From the sequence record SRR31156797_336: a stretch of 64,000 bases of DNA; one strand, written 5' to 3'. A program made the translations under genes and the position numbers. Shown here in pieces: positions 158 to 38,278 of this stretch. Numbering within the stretch: position 1 is the first letter of the stretch; every line of letters begins with the position of its first letter. A model generated the notes under the pieces. That model had not been told where the DNA came from. It did no database searches and worked only from the letters and a program-made list of their open reading frames with translations.

Positions 158-1051
158 ATGCGAAAACTACTATTTCTTCTTACGTTTTGTATCTCCTTAA
201 ACGGATTTTCTCAATTACCACAAGTATCAAGTGGATCTATCATCAGATTGGAACAGTTTGAATCAAAGTATGTTGAAAATAGGAATGTGGATGTTTGGTT
301 ACCCGAATCTTATTCGAAAGATAAAAAATATGCTGTTTTGTACATGCATGATGGACAAATGCTATTTGATGCCAATACCACATGGAACAAGCAGGAGTGG
401 ATGGTAGATGAAGTGATTTCACGCTTAATTAAGGATGGTATAATAAAGGAATGCATAGTAGTAGCACCCTGGAATGCGGGTCAATATCGTCACAGCGATT
501 ATTTTCCTGAAAAGGCAGCGAATTTCCTTCCTGATGAACTCAAAACTCAACTTAAAAAGGGTTTGATGGGGGATTTTAGGGCAGATGAGTATTTACTGTT
601 TTTAACCAAAGAACTCAAACCTTTTATTGATCGTAACTATTCAACATTATCAGATCAGACCAACACATATATTGCAGGTTCTAGCATGGGTGGTTTGATT
701 TCCATATATGCCATTTGTGAATATCCAAATGTATTTTCAGGAGCAGCTTGTATATCCACCCATTGGCCAGGAGATACCAAAATTGTCAGTGACCTGATAC
801 CTGAAGCATTTTACTTCTATCTAAACGAAAATCTACCAATATCAAAAGATCATCGAATCTATTTCGATTATGGAACCGAAACGCTCGATAGTTTGTATAA
901 ACCTCTTCAATTAAAGGTCGATGCAATAATGAAAAAGAATGGATTTGACAAATCGAATTGGATAACCATAGAATTCGAAGGTGAAAATCATTCTGAAGTT
1001 TCCTGGAGTAAGAGATTACACATTCCAATCACATTCTTACTGAATAAATAG
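158..1051 (+). CDS. Secreted alpha/beta-hydrolase (putative esterase family)
   Basis: Signal peptide; VLYMHDGQ and GSSMGG nucleophile motifs; C-terminal HSE. Confidence 0.85.
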   Translation: MRKLLFLLTFCISLNGFSQLPQVSSGSIIRLEQFESKYVENRNVDVWLPESYSKDKKYAVLYMHDGQMLFDANTTWNKQEWMVDEVISRLIKDGIIKECIVVAPWNAGQYRHSDYFPEKAANFLPDELKTQLKKGLMGDFRADEYLLFLTKELKPFIDRNYSTLSDQTNTYIAGSSMGGLISIYAICEYPNVFSGAACISTHWPGDTKIVSDLIPEAFYFYLNENLPISKDHRIYFDYGTETLDSLYKPLQLKVDAIMKKNGFDKSNWITIEFEGENHSEVSWSKRLHIPITFLLNK

Positions 1052-3312: not shown

Positions 3313-4950
3313 ATGAAAAAAATCATGTTTATGTTTTTAGCTGTGGTATTAACCGCAGGTATAACTTTAGCTCAGCAAAATAATTCGAATGTGGAGCAAA
3401 GTGGAACTCAAAACGATGCTGCAGTTGAGCAAGTTGGCTTATGGAATATGAGTGATGTAGAACAGATTGGAGATGACAATACTGCTGAAGTTACTCAAAA
3501 TGGTATTCTCAATTACTCAGAAATCTTCCAATTAGGAGTTGGAAATATTGCAGTTGTAAATCAGGATATCTCTAATACATCCTATGTTACACAATTTTTT
3601 ACTTTTAATAATATTGCAATGGTTGATCAGTTGGGATTGAACTACTCAGAAATCAATCAGGTCTTTGGAGAAGACAATATTGCTATGGTTACTCAGGAAG
3701 GAATGAACTACTCTTTAATCAATCAATTTTTTAGTATTTGGGTTGAGGCTTATGTGGAGCAGTACGGTTATTTCAATGAGTCATATGTAAACCAAATGAG
3801 TGTTTGGGATATTGCAAATGTTCTACAAGTTGGAAATTGGAATCAGGCTTACGTTGAGCAAACCAATAATTTTTGGTCAGAGGCTTTAATCAACCAGTTT
3901 GGTGATGACAACTGGGCAAAAGTTGATCAAATGGGTGGTATGGTTGATTTTGGTGGTATTCTTCAGTTTGGCGAATACAATGCAGCAAGAGTCAAGCAGT
4001 ATTACGGTTACGCGAACTGGGCCGGAGTTATTCAGGATGGATACTGGAATTTGGCTGACGTTTATCAAGGTGGTGGATCATTCAATAGCTCTTTTGTTGA
4101 GCAAACAGGATATGACAACTGGGCTTTCACAACTCAAATGTATGGTGAAGGTAATGATATCGAAATTGAGCAGTATTATGATGTAAATACCGCATATGCA
4201 ACACAGTTTGGTGGAGAAGCAAATACAGCTTACATTGGACAATTAGGTCTTTGGAATTGGGCAAAAACTTACCAGGAAGATGGTAATGACAATTATGCAG
4301 GCATTGCACAAACAGGAGTTGCAAATGAAGCACTTATCAGACAATTTAGAGGTGATAATAACTGGGCTGGTTTAGTTCAGGTTGGTGATTATAATATCGC
4401 TGAAGCACTTCAGATTGATGGAATGTATAATGTAGCTTATTCAGAGCAAGACGGTAATAACAATGCTGTTGGTATGGTTCAGGTAGATGGCGCTAACAAT
4501 TGGACAACAGTTTACCAAACTGGAGATGACAATTGGTCGTATTCAGAGCAAATTGATGGAAGAGAAAATGAAATTTTTGTAAATCAAAATGGTGTTGGAA
4601 ATATGGCTGAAACGTACCAGTTTGGTGGTGGCGGAACTTTAGCTTTAGTTGACCAATATGGTGAAGGTAATTACTCAGGTATTCAGCAAGAAAATGTTGT
4701 TGCATCAGTAGCCGACGTTGTACAAGATGGTAATTTTAATGAATCTGTTGTTATGCAGTTTGATGGTGAATACAATACAGCTACAGTAACTCAGTATGGA
4801 GATTACAATTATTCAGGAATACTTCAGGATGGTTCAAACAATACAGCAACAGTTTATCAGGAAGGATTAATGGAAAGTAGTTTGGTTCTTCAGTATGGTA
4901 ATGGCAATACTGCAACAGTAACTCAATCTGATGTACCAATTATTCCATAA
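3313..4950 (+). CDS. Secreted curlin-repeat protein (CsgA/CsgB-like amyloid subunit)
   Basis: Sec signal peptide followed by ~520 aa of tandem N-x-A/S-x-V/I-x-Q-x-G half-repeats of 11-12 aa. Confidence 0.85.
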   Translation: MKKIMFMFLAVVLTAGITLAQQNNSNVEQSGTQNDAAVEQVGLWNMSDVEQIGDDNTAEVTQNGILNYSEIFQLGVGNIAVVNQDISNTSYVTQFFTFNNIAMVDQLGLNYSEINQVFGEDNIAMVTQEGMNYSLINQFFSIWVEAYVEQYGYFNESYVNQMSVWDIANVLQVGNWNQAYVEQTNNFWSEALINQFGDDNWAKVDQMGGMVDFGGILQFGEYNAARVKQYYGYANWAGVIQDGYWNLADVYQGGGSFNSSFVEQTGYDNWAFTTQMYGEGNDIEIEQYYDVNTAYATQFGGEANTAYIGQLGLWNWAKTYQEDGNDNYAGIAQTGVANEALIRQFRGDNNWAGLVQVGDYNIAEALQIDGMYNVAYSEQDGNNNAVGMVQVDGANNWTTVYQTGDDNWSYSEQIDGRENEIFVNQNGVGNMAETYQFGGGGTLALVDQYGEGNYSGIQQENVVASVADVVQDGNFNESVVMQFDGEYNTATVTQYGDYNYSGILQDGSNNTATVYQEGLMESSLVLQYGNGNTATVTQSDVPIIP

Positions 4951-11897: not shown

Positions 11898-12242
11898 AAT
11901 TATTTTGATTCTTTAAATTTTAACATTTAAATCAATTCTACGGCACAATTTATAAATGGTTATTAAAAAATCGACATTTAAAGTGTTAAAAATCATTAAC
12001 TAAAAGGATGTTGTCAACATAAATAAGACAAATGCATCTTAATTAATCGAGTGTACATGCAATTGAAGTATATCAACTAAGAATATTGTAGTTCGTTATA
12101 AAAATATCATTTTTCAAAGAAGAGCTATCTTATTGGATAGGGTGAAGTTAATAACTAATAGTTTTTTGTAATGCAAAGGTTTTAAATCAAGGGGTAAATA
12201 AAAAACTTAAAATTTAATTAGGATTTTAAGAATAAATGACCT

Positions 12243-12250
12243 TATCTTTG
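12243..12250 (+). promoter_or_regulatory. Bacteroidota -7 promoter element of the arg operon leader
   Basis: TATCTTTG, 25 nt upstream of the first leader ATG. Confidence 0.7.
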
Positions 12251-12274
12251 TTGTCAACAAATCAGAAAAGAAGC

Positions 12275-12328
12275 ATGGAAAATTTAATTATCATTCGACG
12301 ACGCAAAAACGGATCTTTATTTTTATAA
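12275..12328 (+). CDS. Arg leader peptide 1 (MENLIIIRRRKNGSLFL)
   Basis: Read by hand; CGA CGA CGC at codons 8-10; followed by a terminator. Confidence 0.75.
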   Translation: MENLIIIRRRKNGSLFL

Positions 12329-12360
12329 AATAAGGGCAAGCGTTGGTATGATATTTCCCA

Positions 12361-12388
12361 AGCTTTCCAAATCGGAAAGTTTTTTTTT
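12361..12388 (+). terminator. Attenuator terminator 1
   Basis: AGCTTTCC-AAATC-GGAAAGTT plus T run; left arm can pair instead with GGGCAAGCGTTGG (12334-12346). Confidence 0.8.
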
Positions 12389-12413
12389 GAATTTGATTTT
12401 TATAAAACAGAAC

Positions 12414-12503
12414 ATGATGATCTTATTACACAACATTCGACGACGAAGATGTAGCGCACCAAAAGGGAAAGCGGATCAGGTCGTATTGTCGTGTAATCAA
12501 TGA
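12414..12503 (+). CDS. Arg leader peptide 2 (MMILLHNIRRRRCSAPKGKADQVVLSCNQ)
   Basis: Read by hand; CGA CGA CGA AGA at codons 9-12; followed by a terminator. Confidence 0.75.
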   Translation: MMILLHNIRRRRCSAPKGKADQVVLSCNQ

Positions 12504-12518
12504 TTAATAACAATATTT

Positions 12519-12554
12519 AAAAGGCTTATCGTTTTCCCGATAAGCCTTTTTTTT
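12519..12554 (+). terminator. Attenuator terminator 2
   Basis: AAAAGGCTTATCG-TTTTCC-CGATAAGCCTTTT plus T run; alternative pairing with 12465-12482. Confidence 0.85.
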
Positions 12555-12577
12555 GAACTAAAAATTTAAACTGCAAG

Positions 12578-12733
12578 ATGCACAGTAATATCCATACAGA
12601 AAGCAGACGCCATTTGCGAAGTAACTGTTACCCAGGAGGGACGGATGAGCTTGCTATATCTTGTAACGAGATATTATCAATAGTATTTAAGCTTACCGTT
12701 CCTACGGTGGGCTTTTTTTGTGTCAAAAATTAA
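12578..12733 (+). CDS. Arg leader peptide 3 (MHSNIHTESRRHLRSNC..., 51 aa)
   Basis: Read by hand; AGA CGC CAT TTG CGA at codons 10-14; frame runs through terminator 3. Confidence 0.6.
   Translation: MHSNIHTESRRHLRSNCYPGGTDELAISCNEILSIVFKLTVPTVGFFCVKN
12689..12719 (+). terminator. Attenuator terminator 3
   Basis: AAGCTTACCGT-TCCT-ACGGTGGGCTT plus T run; alternative pairing with AGGGACGGATGAGCTT (12637-12652). Confidence 0.85.
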
Positions 12734-12747
12734 AAAAAATAAATGCC

Positions 12748-12888
12748 ATGGATTTAAACAACTCCTTAGACTTTAGGCGACGCTGGTGCCAAAGATTAAA
12801 CAACAGCAATTTAAAAGAGAACTTCTTTGTAGATATAAATAACAAATGGTTATGCCTTACAGGTGTAGCACTTTTTTGGGAAACCTAG
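12748..12888 (+). CDS. Arg leader peptide 4 (MDLNNSLDFRRRWCQR..., 46 aa)
   Basis: Read by hand; AGG CGA CGC at codons 10-12; stop 11 nt before the likely argA start. Confidence 0.6.
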   Translation: MDLNNSLDFRRRWCQRLNNSNLKENFFVDINNKWLCLTGVALFWET

Positions 12889-12899
12889 AGTTAAACAAC

Positions 12900-13493
12900 A
12901 TGATAGATACATCAATGGAAATTGAGCAAAAAATAAGTGTCATTGTAGCAGGTCTTAGGCATATTGATAATGCTTGGGAAATTTGCGAAATGATTGAAGT
13001 TGCCGCAAAAATACGCGGGACAGGAATTGCCAAGAGAAATCCTTTGTACATCGTACAAAAAATACAGGAAGGAAAAGCCATAATCGCATTCGACGATAAT
13101 AAGGTAATTGGTTTTTGTTATGTAGAAACTTGGGAACACGGCAAATATGTAGCCAATTCAGGTCTAATTGTTGATCCTGAATACAGAGCAGTTGGGCTTG
13201 CCAAGCTAATTAAAGCAGAAGCATTTAAATTATCTCGAAAGCGGTATCCACATGCTAAAATCTTCGGACTAACCACCAGTCTTCCTGTCATGAAAATCAA
13301 TTCAGAATTGGGTTACAGACCTGTGACTTTCTCGGAACTAACAAGAGATGAGTCATTTTGGAAGGGATGTAGCAGTTGTGTGAACTATGATATACTGCAA
13401 AGAACAGATCGTAAAATGTGTCTTTGTACAGGTATGTTATTTGATCCAAGCAAAAATAGCACACCCAATTCAAGCGAAGGAGAAAACAAGTAA
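12900..13493 (+). CDS. argA: GNAT-family amino-acid N-acyltransferase (Bacteroidota ArgA-type)
   Basis: RGTGIAKR, VANSGLIV, FGLTT and FWKGC..C motifs; first gene of the arg operon; start moved from 12846 to ATG 12900 (12915 also possible). Confidence 0.8.
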   Translation: MIDTSMEIEQKISVIVAGLRHIDNAWEICEMIEVAAKIRGTGIAKRNPLYIVQKIQEGKAIIAFDDNKVIGFCYVETWEHGKYVANSGLIVDPEYRAVGLAKLIKAEAFKLSRKRYPHAKIFGLTTSLPVMKINSELGYRPVTFSELTRDESFWKGCSSCVNYDILQRTDRKMCLCTGMLFDPSKNSTPNSSEGENK

Positions 13494-13525
13494 GCAATTC
13501 AATCAATAAGCAAAAAATAAACACA

Positions 13526-14725
13526 ATGACAATCAATAAGAAAAAAGTAGTATTAGCATATAGCGGAGGATTAGATACAACATATTGTGCACTTTACCTG
13601 TCTAAGGAGTTGAACATGGATGTGTACACCGCACTGGGAAATACCGGAGGTTTTAGTAAGGACGAACTTACAGATATTGAGAACAGAACAAAACAACTGG
13701 GAGTAATCGAGCATGTATCGCTTGATGTAACAGAGGAATACTACGACAAATGCATTAAGTACATGATAATGGGGAATGTATTAAAAAACAATACTTATCC
13801 TTTATCTGTAAGTTCAGAAAGGGCTTTTCAAGCTATGGCAATAGCACAATACGCACATTCCATTGATGCAGATTATATCGCTCACGGAAGTACCGGAGCA
13901 GGCAATGATCAAATTAGATTCGATTTGATTTTTAAGATTATGGCACCAAATGCCGAGATTATTACTCCTACCAGAGATCTAGAATTAAGCAGAGAAACTG
14001 AAATAAACTACCTGAAAGAGCATGGTATTAATGCGAACTTTGAGAAAATGAAGTATTCGATTAATGCAGGTATTTGGGGTACAAGTATTGGTGGGAAAGA
14101 AACTTTAAGTTCCAATTTGCCATTGCCGGAAGAAGCTTATCCGAAGCAAGTTGTCAAAACTGAACCAGAGAAGCTAAGCATTGAATTTAAAGAAGGTGAG
14201 TTAGTTGCAGTTAATGGTGAAAGTGTAGCACATCCATTGGAAGCAATACAGAAAATTGAAGAAGCAGGAGCAGCTTTTGGTATTGGCAGAGACATGCACA
14301 TTGGAGACACAATTATAGGCACAAAAGGAAGAGTAGCATTTGAAGCTGCAGCTCCATTAATGATTATTCAAGCTCATCAAACTTTGGAAAAGCATACACT
14401 TACCAAGTGGCAAATGCACTGGAAAGAGCAAATTGCCAATTTCTACGGCATGTTGTTACACGAAGCTCAATATTTAGAACCGGTAATGAGAAATATGGAG
14501 ACTTTCCTTGAGGACACCCAGAAAAATGTAAACGGAACTGTTACAATTAAAATGTTTCCAAAGTATTTCCAGGTTGAAGGAATAGAATCTCCTAACGACT
14601 TAATGTCTGATCTGTTCGGACAATACGGCGAAAGCAACGAAGGTTGGACCGCTGATGATGTGAAAGGATTCACAAATATTTTAGCGAACTCATTAAAAAT
14701 CTATCACACCATAAACCAAAAATAA
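13526..14725 (+). CDS. argG: Argininosuccinate synthase
   Basis: LAYSGGLDT, HGSTGAGNDQIRF. Confidence 0.97.
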   Translation: MTINKKKVVLAYSGGLDTTYCALYLSKELNMDVYTALGNTGGFSKDELTDIENRTKQLGVIEHVSLDVTEEYYDKCIKYMIMGNVLKNNTYPLSVSSERAFQAMAIAQYAHSIDADYIAHGSTGAGNDQIRFDLIFKIMAPNAEIITPTRDLELSRETEINYLKEHGINANFEKMKYSINAGIWGTSIGGKETLSSNLPLPEEAYPKQVVKTEPEKLSIEFKEGELVAVNGESVAHPLEAIQKIEEAGAAFGIGRDMHIGDTIIGTKGRVAFEAAAPLMIIQAHQTLEKHTLTKWQMHWKEQIANFYGMLLHEAQYLEPVMRNMETFLEDTQKNVNGTVTIKMFPKYFQVEGIESPNDLMSDLFGQYGESNEGWTADDVKGFTNILANSLKIYHTINQK

Positions 14726-14726
14726 G

Positions 14727-15692
14727 ATGGTAAAAGTTGGAATTATAGGTGGTGCAGGATATACTGCAGGTGAATTGTTGCGGATTTTAATTTGGCATCC
14801 AAAAGTAGAGTTTGCTTTCATCCAAAGTACGAGTCACGCCAATCATCCCATCACGGATGTTCACAGAGATTTATTGGGTGATACCGATTTGGTTTTTGGG
14901 ACTGCGGATTATACCAAAGTTGATGTCATTTTTATCTGTTCGGGACATGGTAAAACCAAGTTGTTTCTAGAAAAGAACAACATATCATCTACTATTAAAA
15001 TAGTAGATTTAAGTACGGATTTCAGACCACAAAGCAATACAGAAGACTTTATTTATGGGTTGCCTGAGTTGAATAGGGATCAAATAAGGAATGCAGATAG
15101 AATTGCCAATCCGGGTTGTTTTGCGACTTGTATCGAGCTTGCGATACTTCCGTTAGCAGCAGAAAACAAATTGAAAGATGAAATTCACGTAAATGCAATT
15201 ACAGGATCAACCGGAGCAGGTCAAAATCCAACTGCCACTTCTCATTTTAGTTGGAAGAATAATAATGTTGCGGTGTACAAAGCTTTTAATCATCAGCATT
15301 TAGCTGAGATTACTGAAACAGTTTTGCAATTGCAAGTCAATTATAAAGAAGCAATCAACTTTATTCCCGTCCGCGGAAATTTTAGCAGAGGAATAATGGC
15401 TACCATGTATACCCTTTGTGACTGGACTTTAGAAGAAGCGAATCAGAAGTATGCTGAATTTTATACCAATCATCCCTTTGTGAGCATTTCTAAAGTCTTA
15501 CCAGATGTAAAACAAGTTGTAAACACAAACAAATGTGTTTTGTATCTTGAAAAACATGGAAACAAATTGATGGTGATATCTGTGATTGATAATTTATTAA
15601 AAGGTGCTTCGGGACAAGCGGTTCAAAATATGAATTTAATGTTCGGATTAGCTGAGAACACCGGTTTGGGATTAAAACCTGTCGGATTTTAA
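14727..15692 (+). CDS. argC: N-acetyl-gamma-glutamyl-phosphate reductase
   Basis: GGAGYTAGEL, IANPGCFAT, DNLLKGASGQAVQN. Confidence 0.97.
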   Translation: MVKVGIIGGAGYTAGELLRILIWHPKVEFAFIQSTSHANHPITDVHRDLLGDTDLVFGTADYTKVDVIFICSGHGKTKLFLEKNNISSTIKIVDLSTDFRPQSNTEDFIYGLPELNRDQIRNADRIANPGCFATCIELAILPLAAENKLKDEIHVNAITGSTGAGQNPTATSHFSWKNNNVAVYKAFNHQHLAEITETVLQLQVNYKEAINFIPVRGNFSRGIMATMYTLCDWTLEEANQKYAEFYTNHPFVSISKVLPDVKQVVNTNKCVLYLEKHGNKLMVISVIDNLLKGASGQAVQNMNLMFGLAENTGLGLKPVGF

Positions 15693-15703
15693 AAGAGAAT
15701 ACA

Positions 15704-16831
15704 ATGAAATTATTTGACGTATATAATTGTTACGATATAAATCTTGTAAACGGAAAAGGAGCTAAACTTTCCGATGACAAGGGTAATCAATATTTAGATT
15801 TTTATGGAGGGCACGGTGTAATATCTATAGGACATAGTCATCCGCATTACATGTTTCGAATAGAACACCAACTGCATTGCTTAGGGTTTTATTCTAATGC
15901 AGTTAAGAATGATTTGCAAGAAAAGTTAGCATGTAAATTGGGGAAAGTTAGTGCTTACGATCATTACAATCTATTTTTGTGTAATTCAGGAGCAGAAGCA
16001 AACGAAAATGCCTTAAAAATTGCCTCATTCCATAATAAGAAATCGAAAGTAGTATCCATAAAAGGAGCATTTCATGGAAGAACCGGTGGAGCACTAGCTA
16101 TTACTGATAATCCTAAATTATCCTCGCCTTATAATAAAGAACACGAGGTGGTGTTTATTGAAATGAACGATTCCAATACACTTGAGAATGAGTTGAAAAA
16201 TGGAGATGTTTCAGCCGTAATAATTGAAGGAATTCAAGGTGTTAACGGAGTATTTGAACCTAACTCAGAATTTTTAAAGAACGCAAAAGCAGCCTGTGAA
16301 AAGAACAATGCGCTTTTGATTTTAGATGAAATTCAATCAGGTTTTGGTAGAAGCGGAAAGTTCTTCGCTCATCAATATGCCGATGTACAACCGGATATCA
16401 TTACCACAGCCAAAGGAATGGGGAATGGTTTTCCAATTGCGGGAGTATTAATATCTCCTGAAATTGAAGCCTGGAAAGGAATGTTGGGAACTACATTTGG
16501 TGGAAATCATTTGGCATGTGCGGCAGCTACGGCTGTTTTAGAAACTATCGAAGAAGAAAATTTAATTGAGAATGCGGAACAAATGGGAGAGTATTTGATC
16601 TCAGCATTAAAAGATAATAAGGCAATAAAAGCAATAAGGGGGAAAGGTTTAATGATTGGTATCGATATGGAGAACATGTCGGAAATCAGAACAAAATTAT
16701 TGAAGGAATTCGGAATATTTACCGGTTCATCAGGAAGTAATACACTTCGCTTGTTACCACCACTTTCTATCACAAAGAAGGAGGCTGACCAATTCATTAA
16801 AGCATTTAATAAACTAACCCAAATTGTTTAA
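15704..16831 (+). CDS. argD: Acetylornithine aminotransferase
   Basis: NSGAEANE, FHGRT, DEIQSGFGR, AKGMGNG; arg operon context. Confidence 0.93.
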   Translation: MKLFDVYNCYDINLVNGKGAKLSDDKGNQYLDFYGGHGVISIGHSHPHYMFRIEHQLHCLGFYSNAVKNDLQEKLACKLGKVSAYDHYNLFLCNSGAEANENALKIASFHNKKSKVVSIKGAFHGRTGGALAITDNPKLSSPYNKEHEVVFIEMNDSNTLENELKNGDVSAVIIEGIQGVNGVFEPNSEFLKNAKAACEKNNALLILDEIQSGFGRSGKFFAHQYADVQPDIITTAKGMGNGFPIAGVLISPEIEAWKGMLGTTFGGNHLACAAATAVLETIEEENLIENAEQMGEYLISALKDNKAIKAIRGKGLMIGIDMENMSEIRTKLLKEFGIFTGSSGSNTLRLLPPLSITKKEADQFIKAFNKLTQIV

Positions 16832-33806: not shown

Positions 33807-34478
33807 ATGAAACGTTTATTGTATCTTTTTCTAATTGCAATGTTATGTGTGAGTAACCTATTTTCACAAAATAGAGAAATAACAGGTCGTATAGTAGTTT
33901 TTGAGACCATTCCGGTAGTAAATGCAAAGATTACACTTAAAAGCTCTGAAAAAATAGTAACAACAAATGAAATGGGAGATTTTACTCTTAATTGCAATTC
34001 AAAAGATAAATTACTCATTGTTGCCGAAGGATTTCAAAGCAAAAAAATAAAAATTAATGATAAAAAGACTTCACCAATTCTAGTTAATCTTGAATTGTCA
34101 AAAAATTCAGAAGCATCGCAAATTGCAGTTTATAAAGGTCATATCTTGAAAATTGAAGAATTCGATAAATTAGTCGAGAAGTATTCTAAAGATAATGGTT
34201 ACGGAAGATATAGTACAGTATTGGAAATTATTAAATGTGAATTTCCAACTTTACAATATGTTAACGGAGAAATAATTATGAGAGGGATTAAATCCATAAC
34301 AGGAAATAATGCTGCGAAAATTTCTGTAGATGGAGTAATTATGGGTGGAAGTATTCTAGAATCATTAACTCCTAATGATATTGTAAGTATTAGGCTGTTA
34401 CAGGGAAGTCAGGCTGCTATACATGGTATAAGGGGAGCAAACGGAGTTGTTGAGATTAAGACCAAACAAGGAAGCTAA
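33807..34478 (+). CDS. CarboxypepD_reg-like plus TonB-dependent-receptor plug domain protein, no barrel
   Basis: Signal peptide; TTNEMGDF; C-terminal VDGV..L.P.DI.SI.LL.GS.AAI.G.RGANGV..I.TK plug motif. Confidence 0.75.
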   Translation: MKRLLYLFLIAMLCVSNLFSQNREITGRIVVFETIPVVNAKITLKSSEKIVTTNEMGDFTLNCNSKDKLLIVAEGFQSKKIKINDKKTSPILVNLELSKNSEASQIAVYKGHILKIEEFDKLVEKYSKDNGYGRYSTVLEIIKCEFPTLQYVNGEIIMRGIKSITGNNAAKISVDGVIMGGSILESLTPNDIVSIRLLQGSQAAIHGIRGANGVVEIKTKQGS

Positions 34479-34500
34479 AAATCAACTTAAAATATTAATA

Positions 34501-34528
34501 AAGGCTGATTCAATTCTGAATCAGCCTT
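34501..34528. terminator. Hairpin between convergent genes
   Basis: AAGGCTGATTCA-ATTC-TGAATCAGCCTT. Confidence 0.7.
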
Positions 34529-34534
34529 TATGTT

Positions 34535-35443
34535 TTAAAATAACTCTTCAATAGAAAGATATCTTTCTCCAGTATCATAGTTAAAGGTAAGAACAGTTGC
34601 TCCATTCTCAATTTCGCTCAACTTCTTATCAACAGCAGCTAATGAAGCTCCAGTAGAAATACCTGCCAAAACACCTTCGTTTACAGCTAATTCTTTCACT
34701 TTTGCAAAAGCATTGTCTTTGCTAACACTTATTGCGCCATCCAATATTTTAACATTTAGATTTTCTGGAATAAATCCCGCACCAATTCCCTGAAGTGGGT
34801 GAGGACCAGGTTCTCCTCCGCCAATAACTGGAGATGCCTCCGGCTCTACTGCAAATACCTTAAGGTTTGGGAATTTCTTTTTTAAGATTTCTGCAACACC
34901 GGTTATGTGACCTCCAGTCCCAACACCGGTAATTAAATAGTCAATACCATCAGGGAAATCATCGATAATTTCTTTAGCAGTTGTTGTTCGGTGTATGTCA
35001 ACATTGGCTTCATTATCAAATTGTGAAGGCATCCATGAATTTCGTGTATTAGCAATCAATTCTTCAGCTTTCTCGATTGCACCTTTCATCCCTTTTTCAC
35101 GAGGAGTTAAAACAAATTCAGCGCCATAAGCCGCCATTAAGCTTCTTCTTTCCACCGACATGGAGTCAGGCATTACCAAAATTAATTTGTATCCTTTTAC
35201 GGCTGCAACCATCGCTAAACCAACACCAGTATTTCCAGATGTAGGTTCAATAATAACTGAATCTTTCCCAAGTAGACCATCTTTCTCGGCTTTTTCGATC
35301 ATTGACAATGCAATTCTATCTTTAATACTACCTGCTGGGTTGGCGCGTTCCAATTTCATCCAGACATTTGCATTCCCAAAAATTTTATTGAGCTTAACTA
35401 CTGGAGTATTTCCGACTCCCTCCAAAATATTATTTAATTTCAT
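34535..35443 (-). CDS. cysK: Cysteine synthase A
   Basis: [31 protein letters not shown]. Confidence 0.96.
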
Positions 35444-35454
35444 ACGACTAATTT

Positions 35455-36294
35455 TTATATTTGAAAATTTATGATTTTACTTTCATCAAGGTTAGTTCTC
35501 ACCTTGGTTTCGTGTTTGTGATATACAATACTATTGGATTCAATACTAGACGTAAGCCATACGTTTCCTCCAATAATACTATTTCTACCAATTACTGTAT
35601 CCCCACCTAATATGGTGGCACTGGAATATATTATTACATTGTCCTCAACGGTAGGATGCCTTTTCTTGTTAGCAAGACTTTTTTTCACCTGTAAAGCTCC
35701 TAATGTAACTCCTTGATATATTTTGACATTGTTTTTAATTATGGCAGTTTCTCCAATTACAACACCTGTTCCATGGTCAATAAAGAAAGATTCTCCAATT
35801 GTTGCACCTGGGTGAATATCAATCCCGGTTTTTGTATGAGAATACTCACTCATTAGTCGTGGAATTATCGGTACAGACAAATGATAAAGAACATTACTTA
35901 ATCGGTACACCATAATTGCAAAAAATCCTGGGTAAGCAATTATCACTTCTCCCAATCGATCTGCTGCAGGATCAAACTTCTGAATTGCCTCGGCATCTTT
36001 TAGTAAAGCCTTGTAAACGAAGGGCAATTGCTTCATAAAGTCATGAGTGACTTTTTCTAAAGGAGCGTTCAATTCACTTTTTACAGGCAATAAAAGAAGC
36101 TTTAAACTTGATTCTAATTGATACAAAAGAGATTCTTGATCGCAGCTACTTTTTGATCTTCTGGCACTTATTGGAAATAATGTATTCATTGATTCCTCAA
36201 CGAATTTTTGAGCCAAATCCCGGGAAGGCATATCGTAGTCTGAATTCTTTCTGGAAGCTTGTAATTCTTCCATTACTTTACTTAGGTAACCCAT
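35455..36294 (-). CDS. cysE: Serine O-acetyltransferase (EpsC-type)
   Basis: [30 protein letters not shown]; start MGYLS at 36294 preferred. Confidence 0.93.
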
Positions 36295-36391
36295 TGTTAA
36301 TTTTGATTTAAAAAGTGTGAATACACCAAATAATAAGGAATACATGTTGTTTCCCAAATAGCTAGTAATATTAGTAAGATGAAGTATCTAT

Positions 36392-36550
36392 CTAACAGCA
36401 ACAACAATAGCAACAACAGACTTGGTTGTTATTGTTTTTTGATATTTGGGAATAATATGAAAAGTGCGATTGATTCGATTGCACAGCAAGATCAGCCAAA
36501 GAGTTTTGGCTATAATTTGAAATTGTTGTATGCAATATATTTCTTTTCAT
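36392..36550 (-). CDS. Poly-cysteine leader peptide (52 aa, ends ...NNNNQVCCCYCCCC)
   Basis: Read by hand; 7 of the last 8 codons are Cys; lies between a promoter element and cysE. Confidence 0.8.
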   Translation of the reverse strand: MKRNILHTTISNYSQNSLADLAVQSNQSHFSYYSQISKNNNNQVCCCYCCCC

Positions 36551-36567
36551 TGTGAAGTTTCTAAAAG

Positions 36568-36575
36568 CAAACTTA
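36568..36575 (-). promoter_or_regulatory. Bacteroidota -7 promoter element of leader-cysE-cysK
   Basis: TAAGTTTG on the minus strand, 17 nt upstream of the leader ATG. Confidence 0.7.
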
Positions 36576-36714
36576 TGAAAAAAAACTTAAACAAGACATC
36601 ATTGTCTTATATTTTCTGTTAATTAATTGTTATTTGATAAGGAGAGAATAATTTATACTAAAACATGAAATTCGTTAATTTTATTTATATTCAAATTACA
36701 AAAGCATTAATAAT

Positions 36715-36924
36715 ATGAGTATTTCAAAGTATATATGTCCAAAATGTGGAAATAAACAGTTTGAAACAGACGAATTTAGAGCAACCGGTGGTCGTTTTGC
36801 CAAAATATTCGATGTTCAAAATAAAAAATTTACTACCGTAACTTGTACAAGGTGTTCCTATACCGAGCTTTATAAGGCCAGCACAAGTCAATTGGGCAAT
36901 ATATTCGATTTTTTTACCAATTAA
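36715..36924 (+). CDS. Small zinc-ribbon protein
   Basis: CPKC and C..C pairs, YTELY motif. Confidence 0.8.
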   Translation: MSISKYICPKCGNKQFETDEFRATGGRFAKIFDVQNKKFTTVTCTRCSYTELYKASTSQLGNIFDFFTN

Positions 36925-36935
36925 TACTGTACTAG

Positions 36936-37409
36936 ATGATCAAGAAACAATTACTTTTTGTCTGCTTAGGAAATATCTGTCGATCACCTAGTGCTGAAGC
37001 TGTTATGAATGGATTTTTAAGAGTTCATATGCTTGATGATGAATTTGAATGCGATTCTGCTGGAACAGGAGGCTGGCATGCTGGAGAAAAAGCAGATAGC
37101 AGAATGAGGAATCACGCCGCACGTCGGGATTACGATTTAACCAGTATTGCTCGCCAGTTTAATCCAAAAACAGATTTTGATCAATTCGATTTTATTATTG
37201 GAATGGATCAGCAAAATGTAGCCGATATAAAAGGAATGGCTCGTAATGAATCAGATCTGGATAAAATTAAATCGATGACTGACTATTGCTCGAGATATAC
37301 ACATTACGATTCAGTTCCAGATCCATATTATGGTGGATCAGATGGATTTGAATTGGTTTTAGATATTTTAGAGGACGCATGTGAAGGATTGCTTAAAGAA
37401 TTAAATTAA
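36936..37409 (+). CDS. Low-molecular-weight protein-tyrosine-phosphatase family
   Basis: VCLGNICRS P-loop, DSAGT, VPDPYYG. Confidence 0.95.
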   Translation: MIKKQLLFVCLGNICRSPSAEAVMNGFLRVHMLDDEFECDSAGTGGWHAGEKADSRMRNHAARRDYDLTSIARQFNPKTDFDQFDFIIGMDQQNVADIKGMARNESDLDKIKSMTDYCSRYTHYDSVPDPYYGGSDGFELVLDILEDACEGLLKELN

Positions 37410-38278
37410 TGAAAGCAGCAGGAGTTGTAAATAAAATAGAAGATTGGGCGGGGAAGAAGATTGTCAATTACAAGTCTGTTACTGGCGGGTCCATTGCTAA
37501 AACCGACCAGATTGAATTTGAGGACGGTCGATCTTGTTTTCTAAAAACAGGATCAGAATTGTCTGATGCTTTTCAGAAGGAGGCTAATGGTCTTAAAGAG
37601 CTTGCAAAAACAAATTGCATACGTGTGCCGGAAGTACTCTTGGTTGATGAAAATTTCCTGCTTCTTGAGTTCATAGAACAAGGAAGAAAAGATCAGAAAT
37701 TCTTTATTCAATTTGGGGAACAATTGGCGGATCTGCATTCACGAACCGCTTTTAAATTTGGATTTAAAGAAGATAATTATATTGGATCAACTCATCAGCT
37801 TAATATCGCGAAAGATACCGAAGCTGAAAACTGGATAGATTTTTATTACAATAAACGTTTGTTATACCAATACAAGCTAGCCGAACAAAAAGGCTTAGCG
37901 GGTAATGAACTGAAAAATGGTTTTCTTATCCTGGAAAATAGAATTGAAGAGATACTGGAAGGGAGTGAAGAAAAACCAACTCTGATTCATGGTGATTTGT
38001 GGAATGGCAATTATCTGTGCGATGTAAATTCCAATCCTGTTTTAATTGACCCTGCGGTTTATTATGGACATAGAGAAGCCGAATTGGCAATGACGAAGCT
38101 TTTTGGAGGATTTGATGATATCTTCTACGATACGTATTCAAAACACAAGCCATTGCCGCAAGGTTACGATTACAGAGAGAATATTTACATGTTATATCAT
38201 GTATTAAACCATCTTAATTTATTCGGAAATTCATATTACGGACAAGCTGTTAGGCTAGTTTGGTACTATTTGCATTAA
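37409..38278 (+). CDS. Fructosamine/ribulosamine 3-kinase family
   Basis: DNYIG, LIHGDLWNG, IDPAVYYGHREAELAMTKLFGGF. Confidence 0.93.
   Translation: MKAAGVVNKIEDWAGKKIVNYKSVTGGSIAKTDQIEFEDGRSCFLKTGSELSDAFQKEANGLKELAKTNCIRVPEVLLVDENFLLLEFIEQGRKDQKFFIQFGEQLADLHSRTAFKFGFKEDNYIGSTHQLNIAKDTEAENWIDFYYNKRLLYQYKLAEQKGLAGNELKNGFLILENRIEEILEGSEEKPTLIHGDLWNGNYLCDVNSNPVLIDPAVYYGHREAELAMTKLFGGFDDIFYDTYSKHKPLPQGYDYRENIYMLYHVLNHLNLFGNSYYGQAVRLVWYYLH

Follow-up and report, generated by a model that had tools for sequence, protein, structure and literature searches.

An upstream open reading frame (uORF) on the minus strand of SRR31156797_336, a stretch of 64,000 nucleotides (nt) hereafter referred to as the window, is likely a leader peptide that senses cysteine through the supply of charged tRNA-Cys and controls the cysE-cysK operon behind it. 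Judged by its sequence, the window comes from the genome of a Marinifilum, a marine member of Bacteroidota. The uORF (36392..36550, 52 codons plus TAG, MKRNILHTTISNYSQNSLADLAVQSNQSHFSYYSQISKNNNNQVCCCYCCCC), found both in the open reading frame (ORF) listing and on reading the sequence, encodes a peptide that starts with MKRN and ends in NNNNQVCCCYCCCC, and its last codons are TGT TGT TGC TAT TGT TGT TGC TGT TAG. These form a regulatory tract of seven Cys codons and one Tyr codon (CCCYCCCC, 36395..36418) with the stop codon directly after it (36394-36392), and a spacer of exactly 97 nt (36391-36295) leads to cysE. An earlier reading of this DNA, hereafter the original prediction, had described a 52-residue uORF with terminal Cys codons 97 nt before cysE, together with a promoter element, and had named no strand; both are present on the minus strand, the promoter element being TAAGTTTG at 36575-36568. 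The two hallmarks of a leader attenuator, an ORF between a promoter and a biosynthetic operon and a cluster of codons for the end product (seven Cys codons among the last eight), were thereby both found. Within its 64 kb, the window contains one other stop-terminated frame with at least four Cys among the last eight residues, and this one is weak.

We compared the leader with those of related genomes. A CysE query against the GTDB representative genomes returned 80 loci (L001-L080). L001 is an uncultured Marinifilum sp. with a 99% identical CysE, the same species as the window, and L002-L018 (CysE 76-89% identical) are titled Marinifilum, Labilibaculum, Ancylomarina or Marinifilaceae. L019-L027 (about 58-68%) are Bacteroidales-type metagenome-assembled genomes (MAGs), and L028-L080 (about 48-66%) are almost all assigned to Flavobacteriaceae or its genera. 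The window and L001-L018 are hereafter referred to as the 19 sequences. A 2025 paper proposes in its title that Labilibaculum and Ancylomarina be merged into Marinifilum, so that the 18 relatives may represent one broad genus. All 18 carry an ATG-started, in-frame uORF of 47-59 codons that ends 89-104 nt before cysE, with 6-8 Cys codons among its final 7-15 codons, the last of them separated from the stop by 0-1 codon; its ATG never varies, and the alignment gaps inside the uORF all come in multiples of three. Conservation in frame in 18/18 relatives suggests that the uORF is translated. The original prediction had called for this search of the relatives' cysE upstream regions and had named a Cys run not conserved in frame as grounds for abandoning the idea; the run was found in frame at the stop in 18/18 Marinifilaceae. 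As a background, 33 stop-terminated frames with at least four Cys among the last eight residues were counted over all six frames of 635,071 nt, of which 18 were cysE leaders (16 of L001-L018, plus L023 and L046) and 15 lay elsewhere. A search with the peptide against 5.8 billion predicted proteins returned a single match (89% identical), indicating that the uORF has been missed by gene callers, and a protein-family scan gave no Pfam-style or NCBIfam match to the peptide.

The uORF RNA is predicted to be highly structured, and the structure is conserved. Its 5' part (36457..36550, minus strand) forms a long irregular hairpin of three helices, detected in the minimum-energy fold and as inverted repeat I7. 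In helix P-1, AUGAAAAG (36550-36543) pairs with CUUUUCAU (36464-36457), so that the uORF start codon itself is paired; P0 joins 36536-36529 with 36485-36478, and P1 joins 36510-36505 with 36500-36495. Across the 19 sequences, 73%, 79% and 92% of cells were paired in P-1, P0 and P1, with two-sided changes in 2, 5 and 4 pairs, respectively. A fourth helix, H2 (36400..36439, minus strand), pairs Asn codons (AAC AAU AAC AAC) with the first Cys codons, in agreement with the Asn-codon to Cys-codon pairing put forward in the original prediction; it appeared as inverted repeat I2 (15 nt, 87% complementary), as a helix of the minimum-energy fold and in the RNAalifold consensus. H2 is retained in 19/19 sequences (96.9% of cells paired), including those in which the local peptide reads TSNLN instead of NNNQV, and it shows one-sided changes only because its Cys side is fixed. 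From the full 393-column alignment, RNAalifold recovered only P1 and H2, and the remaining helices were defined from per-sequence pair probabilities of the same sequences before counting, so that the counts lean towards structure; with that limit, the four helices jointly had 84.6% of cells paired, compared with 36-45% in controls slid by 1-3 columns, 11 pairs changed on both sides, and 0/500 shuffles reached the observed pairing or covariation score. In P1, GCCAAA/UUUGGC is replaced by UCGAA/UUCGA, UCCGAA/UUCGGA or CUCAA/UUGAG, and the encoded residues change with it (Q/R, L/S, A/I/D). Since this covariation alters the residues, it suggests that the RNA, not the peptide, is under selection.

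Structure also extends beyond the stop codon. An irregular hairpin in the minimum-energy fold, H3 (36361..36405, minus strand), joins the first 30 nt of the spacer to the stop and the final Cys codons; across 10 Marinifilum sequences its cells were 75-84% paired, 4 pairs had changed on both sides, and the 3' half of the leader as a whole reached 81% paired versus 33-54% in controls. Behind H3 lies a segment (36326..36360, minus strand) that holds the 3' arm of a 10-bp inverted repeat (36360-36351), a weak hairpin H4 (GGGAA, 36355-36351, with UUCC, 36340-36337) lacking a proper U-tract, and a second UAUUUGG copy (36332-36326). The position of H4 is kept in the 10 Marinifilum sequences (94% of cells paired). 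Upstream of H2, the A element UUAUUCCCAAAUA (36443..36455, minus strand) is conserved as a single-stranded stretch and provides the 5' arm of the 10-bp repeat in the window species. Its TTATTCCCAAA and its 11-nt UUAUUCCCAAA (36455-36445) are unchanged in 12/19 sequences, and TAT TCC CAA shows no synonymous variation. The predicted partner of the A element varies by lineage. It lies after the stop in the window and L001, whereas in L010-L013 it falls within the Cys tract or at its end; for the M. flexuosum group, the 5' flank of the element is predicted to pair beyond H4. The window leader folded better than shuffles (z = -2.27; 4/200 shuffles as good). The 10-bp repeat (36351-36360/36443-36452), which the original prediction had singled out, is real and perfect (I1), but its length is within chance, as 57/300 first-order Markov simulations gave at least 10 bp, and among the relatives it is shared by L001 alone, a member of the same species; it is thus the form that a loosely conserved closing helix takes in a single species, and by itself it does not exceed chance. 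An Rfam scan of 34000-38000 with E up to 10 gave no relevant match, the nine listed being eukaryotic noise of the small nucleolar RNA or microRNA type far under the gathering scores. A riboswitch-like role for the 5' domain was considered and rejected, as its loops are not conserved in sequence.

Outside these relatives, comparable uORFs are rare, occurring in two of 61 loci (L019-L080 minus the truncated L026). One, in L023 (Bacteroidetes MAG; 560-710, plus strand), has 47 codons, contains FYCSCWRCCCSC before its stop, terminates in YCSCWRCCCSC and lies about 100 nt before cysE-cysK; it looks like a true analogue. The other, in L046 (Flavobacteriaceae MAG; 3662-3736, plus strand), has 24 codons ending in FSCICCC and sits directly behind a TAACTTTG box; it could be chance, with about 0.2 such frames expected among about 53 loci from the background count. 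The L023 leader folded no better than shuffles (z = 0.22), and a covariance model of the 5' domain and H2 (R1), run over the window and the 80 loci (699,071 nt), matched only its 19 training sequences, the next hit having E = 0.11. Because R1 does not match them, the L023 and L046 leaders are not detectably the same RNA, and their uORFs may be independent inventions. The poly-Cys leader from which the original prediction inferred a cysteine attenuator in Bacteroidota is characteristic of a single family, Marinifilaceae (18/18 close relatives), and not of the phylum at large (2/61 other loci).

The promoter region is conserved as well. The TAnnTTTG sequence is described in PMC9723704 as the Bacteroidota sigma-A -7 box, located at -12 to -5, and was detected 25-27 nt ahead of the uORF ATG in 18/19 sequences, L002 having TAAGTTTA instead. 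In the window the box (36568..36575, minus strand) ends 17 nt before the ATG, and given its known position, transcription is predicted to start at about 36563-36562, leaving a 5' untranslated region (UTR) of about 12-13 nt. No second TAnnTTTG promoter was seen on reading the aligned spacers. Further upstream, most of the 19 sequences keep the motif TTAACAGAAA-N5-AGAC (36604..36622, minus strand) within the 75 nt before the uORF, with Labilibaculum retaining its left half only; the motif occurs once in the window, versus 0.02 occurrences expected. AAGAC (36608-36604) and GTCTT (36597-36593) also form an inverted repeat, AAGAC-N6-GTCTT, that overlaps the -33 region. On this pattern, the motif may be a putative operator of a transcription factor, which would add a second layer of control to cysE-cysK.

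The original prediction noted no hairpin-plus-U terminator in this leader, and our scans agree with it. A terminator scan of the window found no intrinsic terminator between the uORF and cysE, and a relaxed scan of the 19 leaders gave nothing convincing, returning only the Asn:Cys hairpin followed by U-rich Cys codons and a few weak 5-bp stems. We rejected H2 with its U-rich Cys codons as a terminator on logical grounds: it could not report cysteine, because the polymerase would already have passed before a ribosome reads the Cys codons. The same window carries a tandem arginine leader region (12236-12720, plus strand) upstream of ORFs at 12846-16831, probably the arg leader mentioned in the original prediction. 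Its two leader ORFs contain RRR (IIIRRRKNGSLFL before the stop, end 12328) and RRRR (MMILLHNIRRRRCSAPKG, end 12503), each with a strong hairpin and T8-T9 behind it (12360-12382 and 12519-12550), and a third terminator follows at 12689-12714; downstream are a 215-residue ORF without a family match and then argG, argC and an argD-type transaminase. The relaxed scan recovered the three canonical plus-strand terminators in this region. Attenuators of this genome thus do use canonical terminators, which makes the lack of one in the cysteine leader informative.

How a stall could be turned into control can be outlined from the predicted folds. As long as the RNA is free of ribosomes, every leader has its Cys codons paired, through H2 and, in Marinifilum, through H3 as well. 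With its AUG paired in P-1, the uORF would be loaded with about one ribosome per transcript, a pioneer that would have to bind before the 5' hairpin closes, and such loading suits a decision made during transcription better than a translational switch at equilibrium. With ample Cys-tRNA, the ribosome would reach the stop and leave, and the leader would refold into a closed state that hides both the AUG and the Cys tract and keeps expression low. With scarce Cys-tRNA, a ribosome stalled on the terminal Cys codons would keep H2 and H3 open and expression would rise. The output may be Rho-dependent termination in the spacer or in early cysE, which the stalled ribosome would block by separating the polymerase from the C-rich, G-poor uORF RNA (UUAUUCCCAAA included), in the manner of E. 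coli tna. Consistent with this, C was about twice as frequent as G in the uORF before the Cys tract in 19/19 sequences, C exceeded G in the spacer in 18/19, and no skew was seen in the 100 nt before 39 other ORFs of the window (means of 14.3 C and 15.1 G). Factor-dependent termination by Rho is the output step that we weakly favour, while granting it somewhat less than an even chance. The circuit as a whole, a terminator-less attenuator in Bacteroidota without Shine-Dalgarno pairing, in which a pioneer ribosome gated by a covarying hairpin of about 95 nt over the uORF start stalls on poly-Cys and roadblocks Rho loaded on UUAUUCCCAAA, is put forward tentatively and as rather doubtful in its entirety. 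If true, no earlier leader-peptide/Rho circuit would be on record for the phylum, and the mechanism would be distinct from the trp and mycobacterial types.

Several observations weigh against cysteine sensing by the leader or against the proposed output. The response of cysE-cysK to cysteine is something that we infer from the architecture of the leader. The poly-Cys uORF is missing from L019, a Marinifilaceae MAG (CysE 58% identical) in which cysE-cysK is present, and from nearly all other Bacteroidota examined, and therefore it is not needed for cysE-cysK control in the phylum. With regard to structure, the long-range closing helix is not kept in register (64% of cells paired). We also folded the 19 leaders at equilibrium with a masked ribosome (29-nt footprint at Cys1, Cys4 or the stop, versus free; 11/19 in one run), and found no consistent change in H4 probability, in cysE start accessibility or elsewhere downstream of the uORF; mutually exclusive terminator and antiterminator pairings of the trp/his type did not emerge consistently in the equilibrium folds of the 19 leaders. 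As for Rho loading, the C-over-G skew is modest, as an excess of at least six C over G precedes 13% of the control ORFs; the single-stranded stretch around the A element spans only about 19 nt in the window, where the element is moreover predicted to be paired (10 bp) in every state; and the C-rich uORF, lying mostly inside the modelled hairpin, would be poor loading material.

An unlikely alternative output is translational attenuation of the mycobacterial kind, in which the Cys tract or the closed domain would lower cysE initiation and a stall would free the start region. It has been demonstrated for Ms5788A, whose Cys tract pairs with the Shine-Dalgarno region and whose transcriptional reporter is described as cysteine-insensitive (bioRxiv 10.1101/834739), and AACAAUG, the context in which cysE starts, is complementary to (UGU)n. 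Within the M. flexuosum subgroup (L004, L005, L006, L008 and L015), the cysE start ranked first or second of 9-10 as a partner of the tract, at -7.8 to -12.0 kcal/mol. However, these five were the only such cases among the 19 sequences, nine of which placed the cysE start in the worse half, and the controls that paired at least as well numbered 21/46 in the window, 7/7 in L011, 8/8 in L014 and 5/5 in L018, so that no consistent enrichment emerged. The cysE start was equally accessible in the free and stalled states (about 0.5-0.6 unpaired) in 19/19 sequences, and an AUG hidden in P-1 would work against the repeated uORF translation that an equilibrium switch needs. Moreover, Bacteroidota are described as initiating without Shine-Dalgarno pairing (PMC9723704).

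Two further outputs are more improbable still, both to the same degree. In the first, H4 (AGG...CCU, 50-75 nt before cysE) and its T-rich 3' flank would act as a non-canonical intrinsic terminator with the A element as antiterminator. The conserved position of H4 in Marinifilum fits this idea, as does the GGGAA common to the 10-bp repeat and H4 in the window, and in L004 the masked-ribosome fold gave up H4, whose 3' side paired with the A element instead. Yet the stems have 4-8 bp with mismatches and no U-tract directly after them, none passed the terminator criteria (weak 5-bp stems passed the relaxed ones), and the real terminators of the window genome are strong stems followed by T7-T9. The probability of H4 was also equal in the free and stalled states, and in the window H4 was not formed in any state (0.01-0.03). 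The second possibility is that a stalled ribosome, or an open versus a closed leader, alters the decay of the cysE-cysK mRNA. Stalled ribosomes stabilise erm leaders in Bacillus, and the absence of both a terminator and a predicted switch leaves room for a decay-based output; nevertheless, no nuclease site is indicated by the sequence, and the reading is conjectural.

That the product is a functional small Cys-rich peptide, binding metal or sulfur or serving as the precursor of a ribosomally synthesised and post-translationally modified peptide, and not a sensor, appears very improbable. Conservation of the ORF and the metal-binding potential of 6-8 clustered Cys residues speak for it, but conservation outside the Cys run is poor and the helices are kept through changes that alter residues. 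The lack of a family match also speaks against it, as does a neighbourhood (cysE, cysK and a small zinc-ribbon gene) without genes for modification or export, and so does the near-absence of the peptide from predicted proteomes. Finally, a chance ORF in AT-rich intergenic DNA can be practically dismissed: the 10-bp repeat alone would be compatible with it, but the in-frame conservation in 18/18 relatives, the promoter box and the covarying helices refute it.

The operon itself is compact and well defined. On the minus strand, the TTAACAGAAA motif, the -7 box, the uORF, the spacer, cysE, cysK and a strong terminator follow one another. The cysE gene encodes a serine O-acetyltransferase of 279 residues counted from the conserved ATG (35455..36294; TIGR01172, E = 1.9e-47; NF041874, 151.5 bits, cut-off 150); cysK, for cysteine synthase A, begins 11 nt past it (34535..35443; TIGR01139, 406 bits, cut-off 351), and the operon closes with an intrinsic terminator consisting of a 15-bp stem and a T-rich tail (34498..34531). 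In 18/18 relatives cysK comes after cysE. The cysE N-terminus is kept in all 18, and for this reason the gene probably begins with the ATG at 36294. Only in the window and L001 is the cysE frame open further upstream (36295-36357, minus strand), with other potential starts at 36344 (ATG) and 36357 (TTG); this part overlaps the 3' arm of the 10-bp repeat, and the TTG used in the ORF listing is probably not the real start, so that automatic annotation could over-extend cysE in the window species. Opposite the leader, an antisense ORF of 58 residues (36379-36555, plus strand, MKYLSNSNNNSNN) is a mirror artefact of the Cys and Asn codon runs and no gene candidate. The divergent neighbour (36715-36924, plus strand) is a small zinc-ribbon gene whose 69-residue product has two CxxC pairs and a weak match, under the cut-off, to the ECs_2282 zinc-binding family (E = 2.8e-5); this gene adjoins the leader in 13 of the 80 loci (Marinifilum and some Labilibaculum).

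To our knowledge, experimental proof of leader peptides that sense cysteine is confined to mycobacteria, where they act via Shine-Dalgarno masking. Because Bacteroidota do not use such masking, the Marinifilaceae poly-Cys leader offers a clean natural system in which to ask how a stall is converted into control, in a setting of unusual promoters, Shine-Dalgarno-independent initiation and atypical Rho. Our searches of open-access papers and bioRxiv turned up no cysteine leader described for Bacteroidota, and the Flavobacterium psychrophilum leader list contains leader-peptide attenuators for ilvE and hisG and no cysE or cysK entry (PMC9723704, supplement file 8). With these two, with trpL and hisL and with the arg leaders of the window, the cysteine leader shares a promoter-proximal uORF rich in codons for the end product before a biosynthetic operon. 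In contrast to all of these, which end in strong terminator hairpins with U-tracts, it has no such hairpin; it is also 2-3 times longer than typical leader peptides, and its regulatory codons stand directly at the stop.

Another parallel in layout is tnaC. In the E. coli tnaC system, free tryptophan acts on the nascent peptide to cause a stall at the stop, which is adjoined by a rut/boxA site. Both leaders combine a stall at the end of the ORF, predicted in the case of the cysteine leader, with a long untranslated spacer and no intrinsic terminator, and in both a stalled ribosome would deny access to Rho. They differ in that tnaC uses a tryptophan-induced nascent-peptide stall and a defined rut/boxA site, whereas the cysteine leader would respond to codon starvation and has no such site defined. 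The Rhodobacterales candidate uORFC-8-2, located before cysS, is likewise a ribosome-mediated attenuator candidate with Cys codons within a stem (PMC8632094). As described there, it has two tandem Cys codons at positions 14-15, a tRNA synthetase gene downstream and a clear terminator with a U run; the Marinifilaceae leader instead has 6-8 Cys codons at its very end, a biosynthetic operon and no terminator.

The nearest relatives in logic are the poly-Cys leaders of Actinobacteria, the precedent on which the original prediction drew, and this precedent is indeed published. Ms5788A is a demonstrated cysteine-responsive translational attenuator in Mycobacterium smegmatis, and Rv2334A precedes cysK1-cysE in M. 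tuberculosis (bioRxiv 10.1101/834739). For Mycobacterium, Propionibacterium acnes and Bifidobacterium longum, candidate poly-Cys leaders without terminators were listed and a tna-like involvement of Rho was proposed (PMC1262725); these resemble the Marinifilaceae leader in having Cys runs near the stop and no conserved terminator hairpin, but they belong to Actinobacteria, and no conserved RNA structure is reported there, whereas the Marinifilaceae leader has helices supported by covariation. With the mycobacterial small ORFs (bioRxiv 10.1101/834739), the shared features are a C-terminal Cys run at the stop before cysteine or sulfur genes (the same two genes in M. tuberculosis), no intrinsic terminator, a Cys tract paired in the free RNA and a spacer of about 97 nt in both. 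The phylum is different, however, and there is no detectable sequence relationship. The mycobacterial small ORFs are leaderless, whereas about 12 nt of 5' UTR are predicted for the Marinifilum transcript, and the Marinifilaceae uORF is far more structured, with the roughly 95-nt covarying hairpin including its own AUG. Its Cys tract is predicted to pair with Asn codons further upstream and with the beginning of the spacer, and pairing with the start region of the next gene, as in the mycobacterial tract (bioRxiv 10.1101/834739), is not consistently supported. There is also no Shine-Dalgarno sequence to mask. Overall, the Marinifilaceae leader follows the Actinobacterial poly-Cys logic, but it is unrelated in sequence, predicted not to be leaderless, more structured and unable to use Shine-Dalgarno masking.

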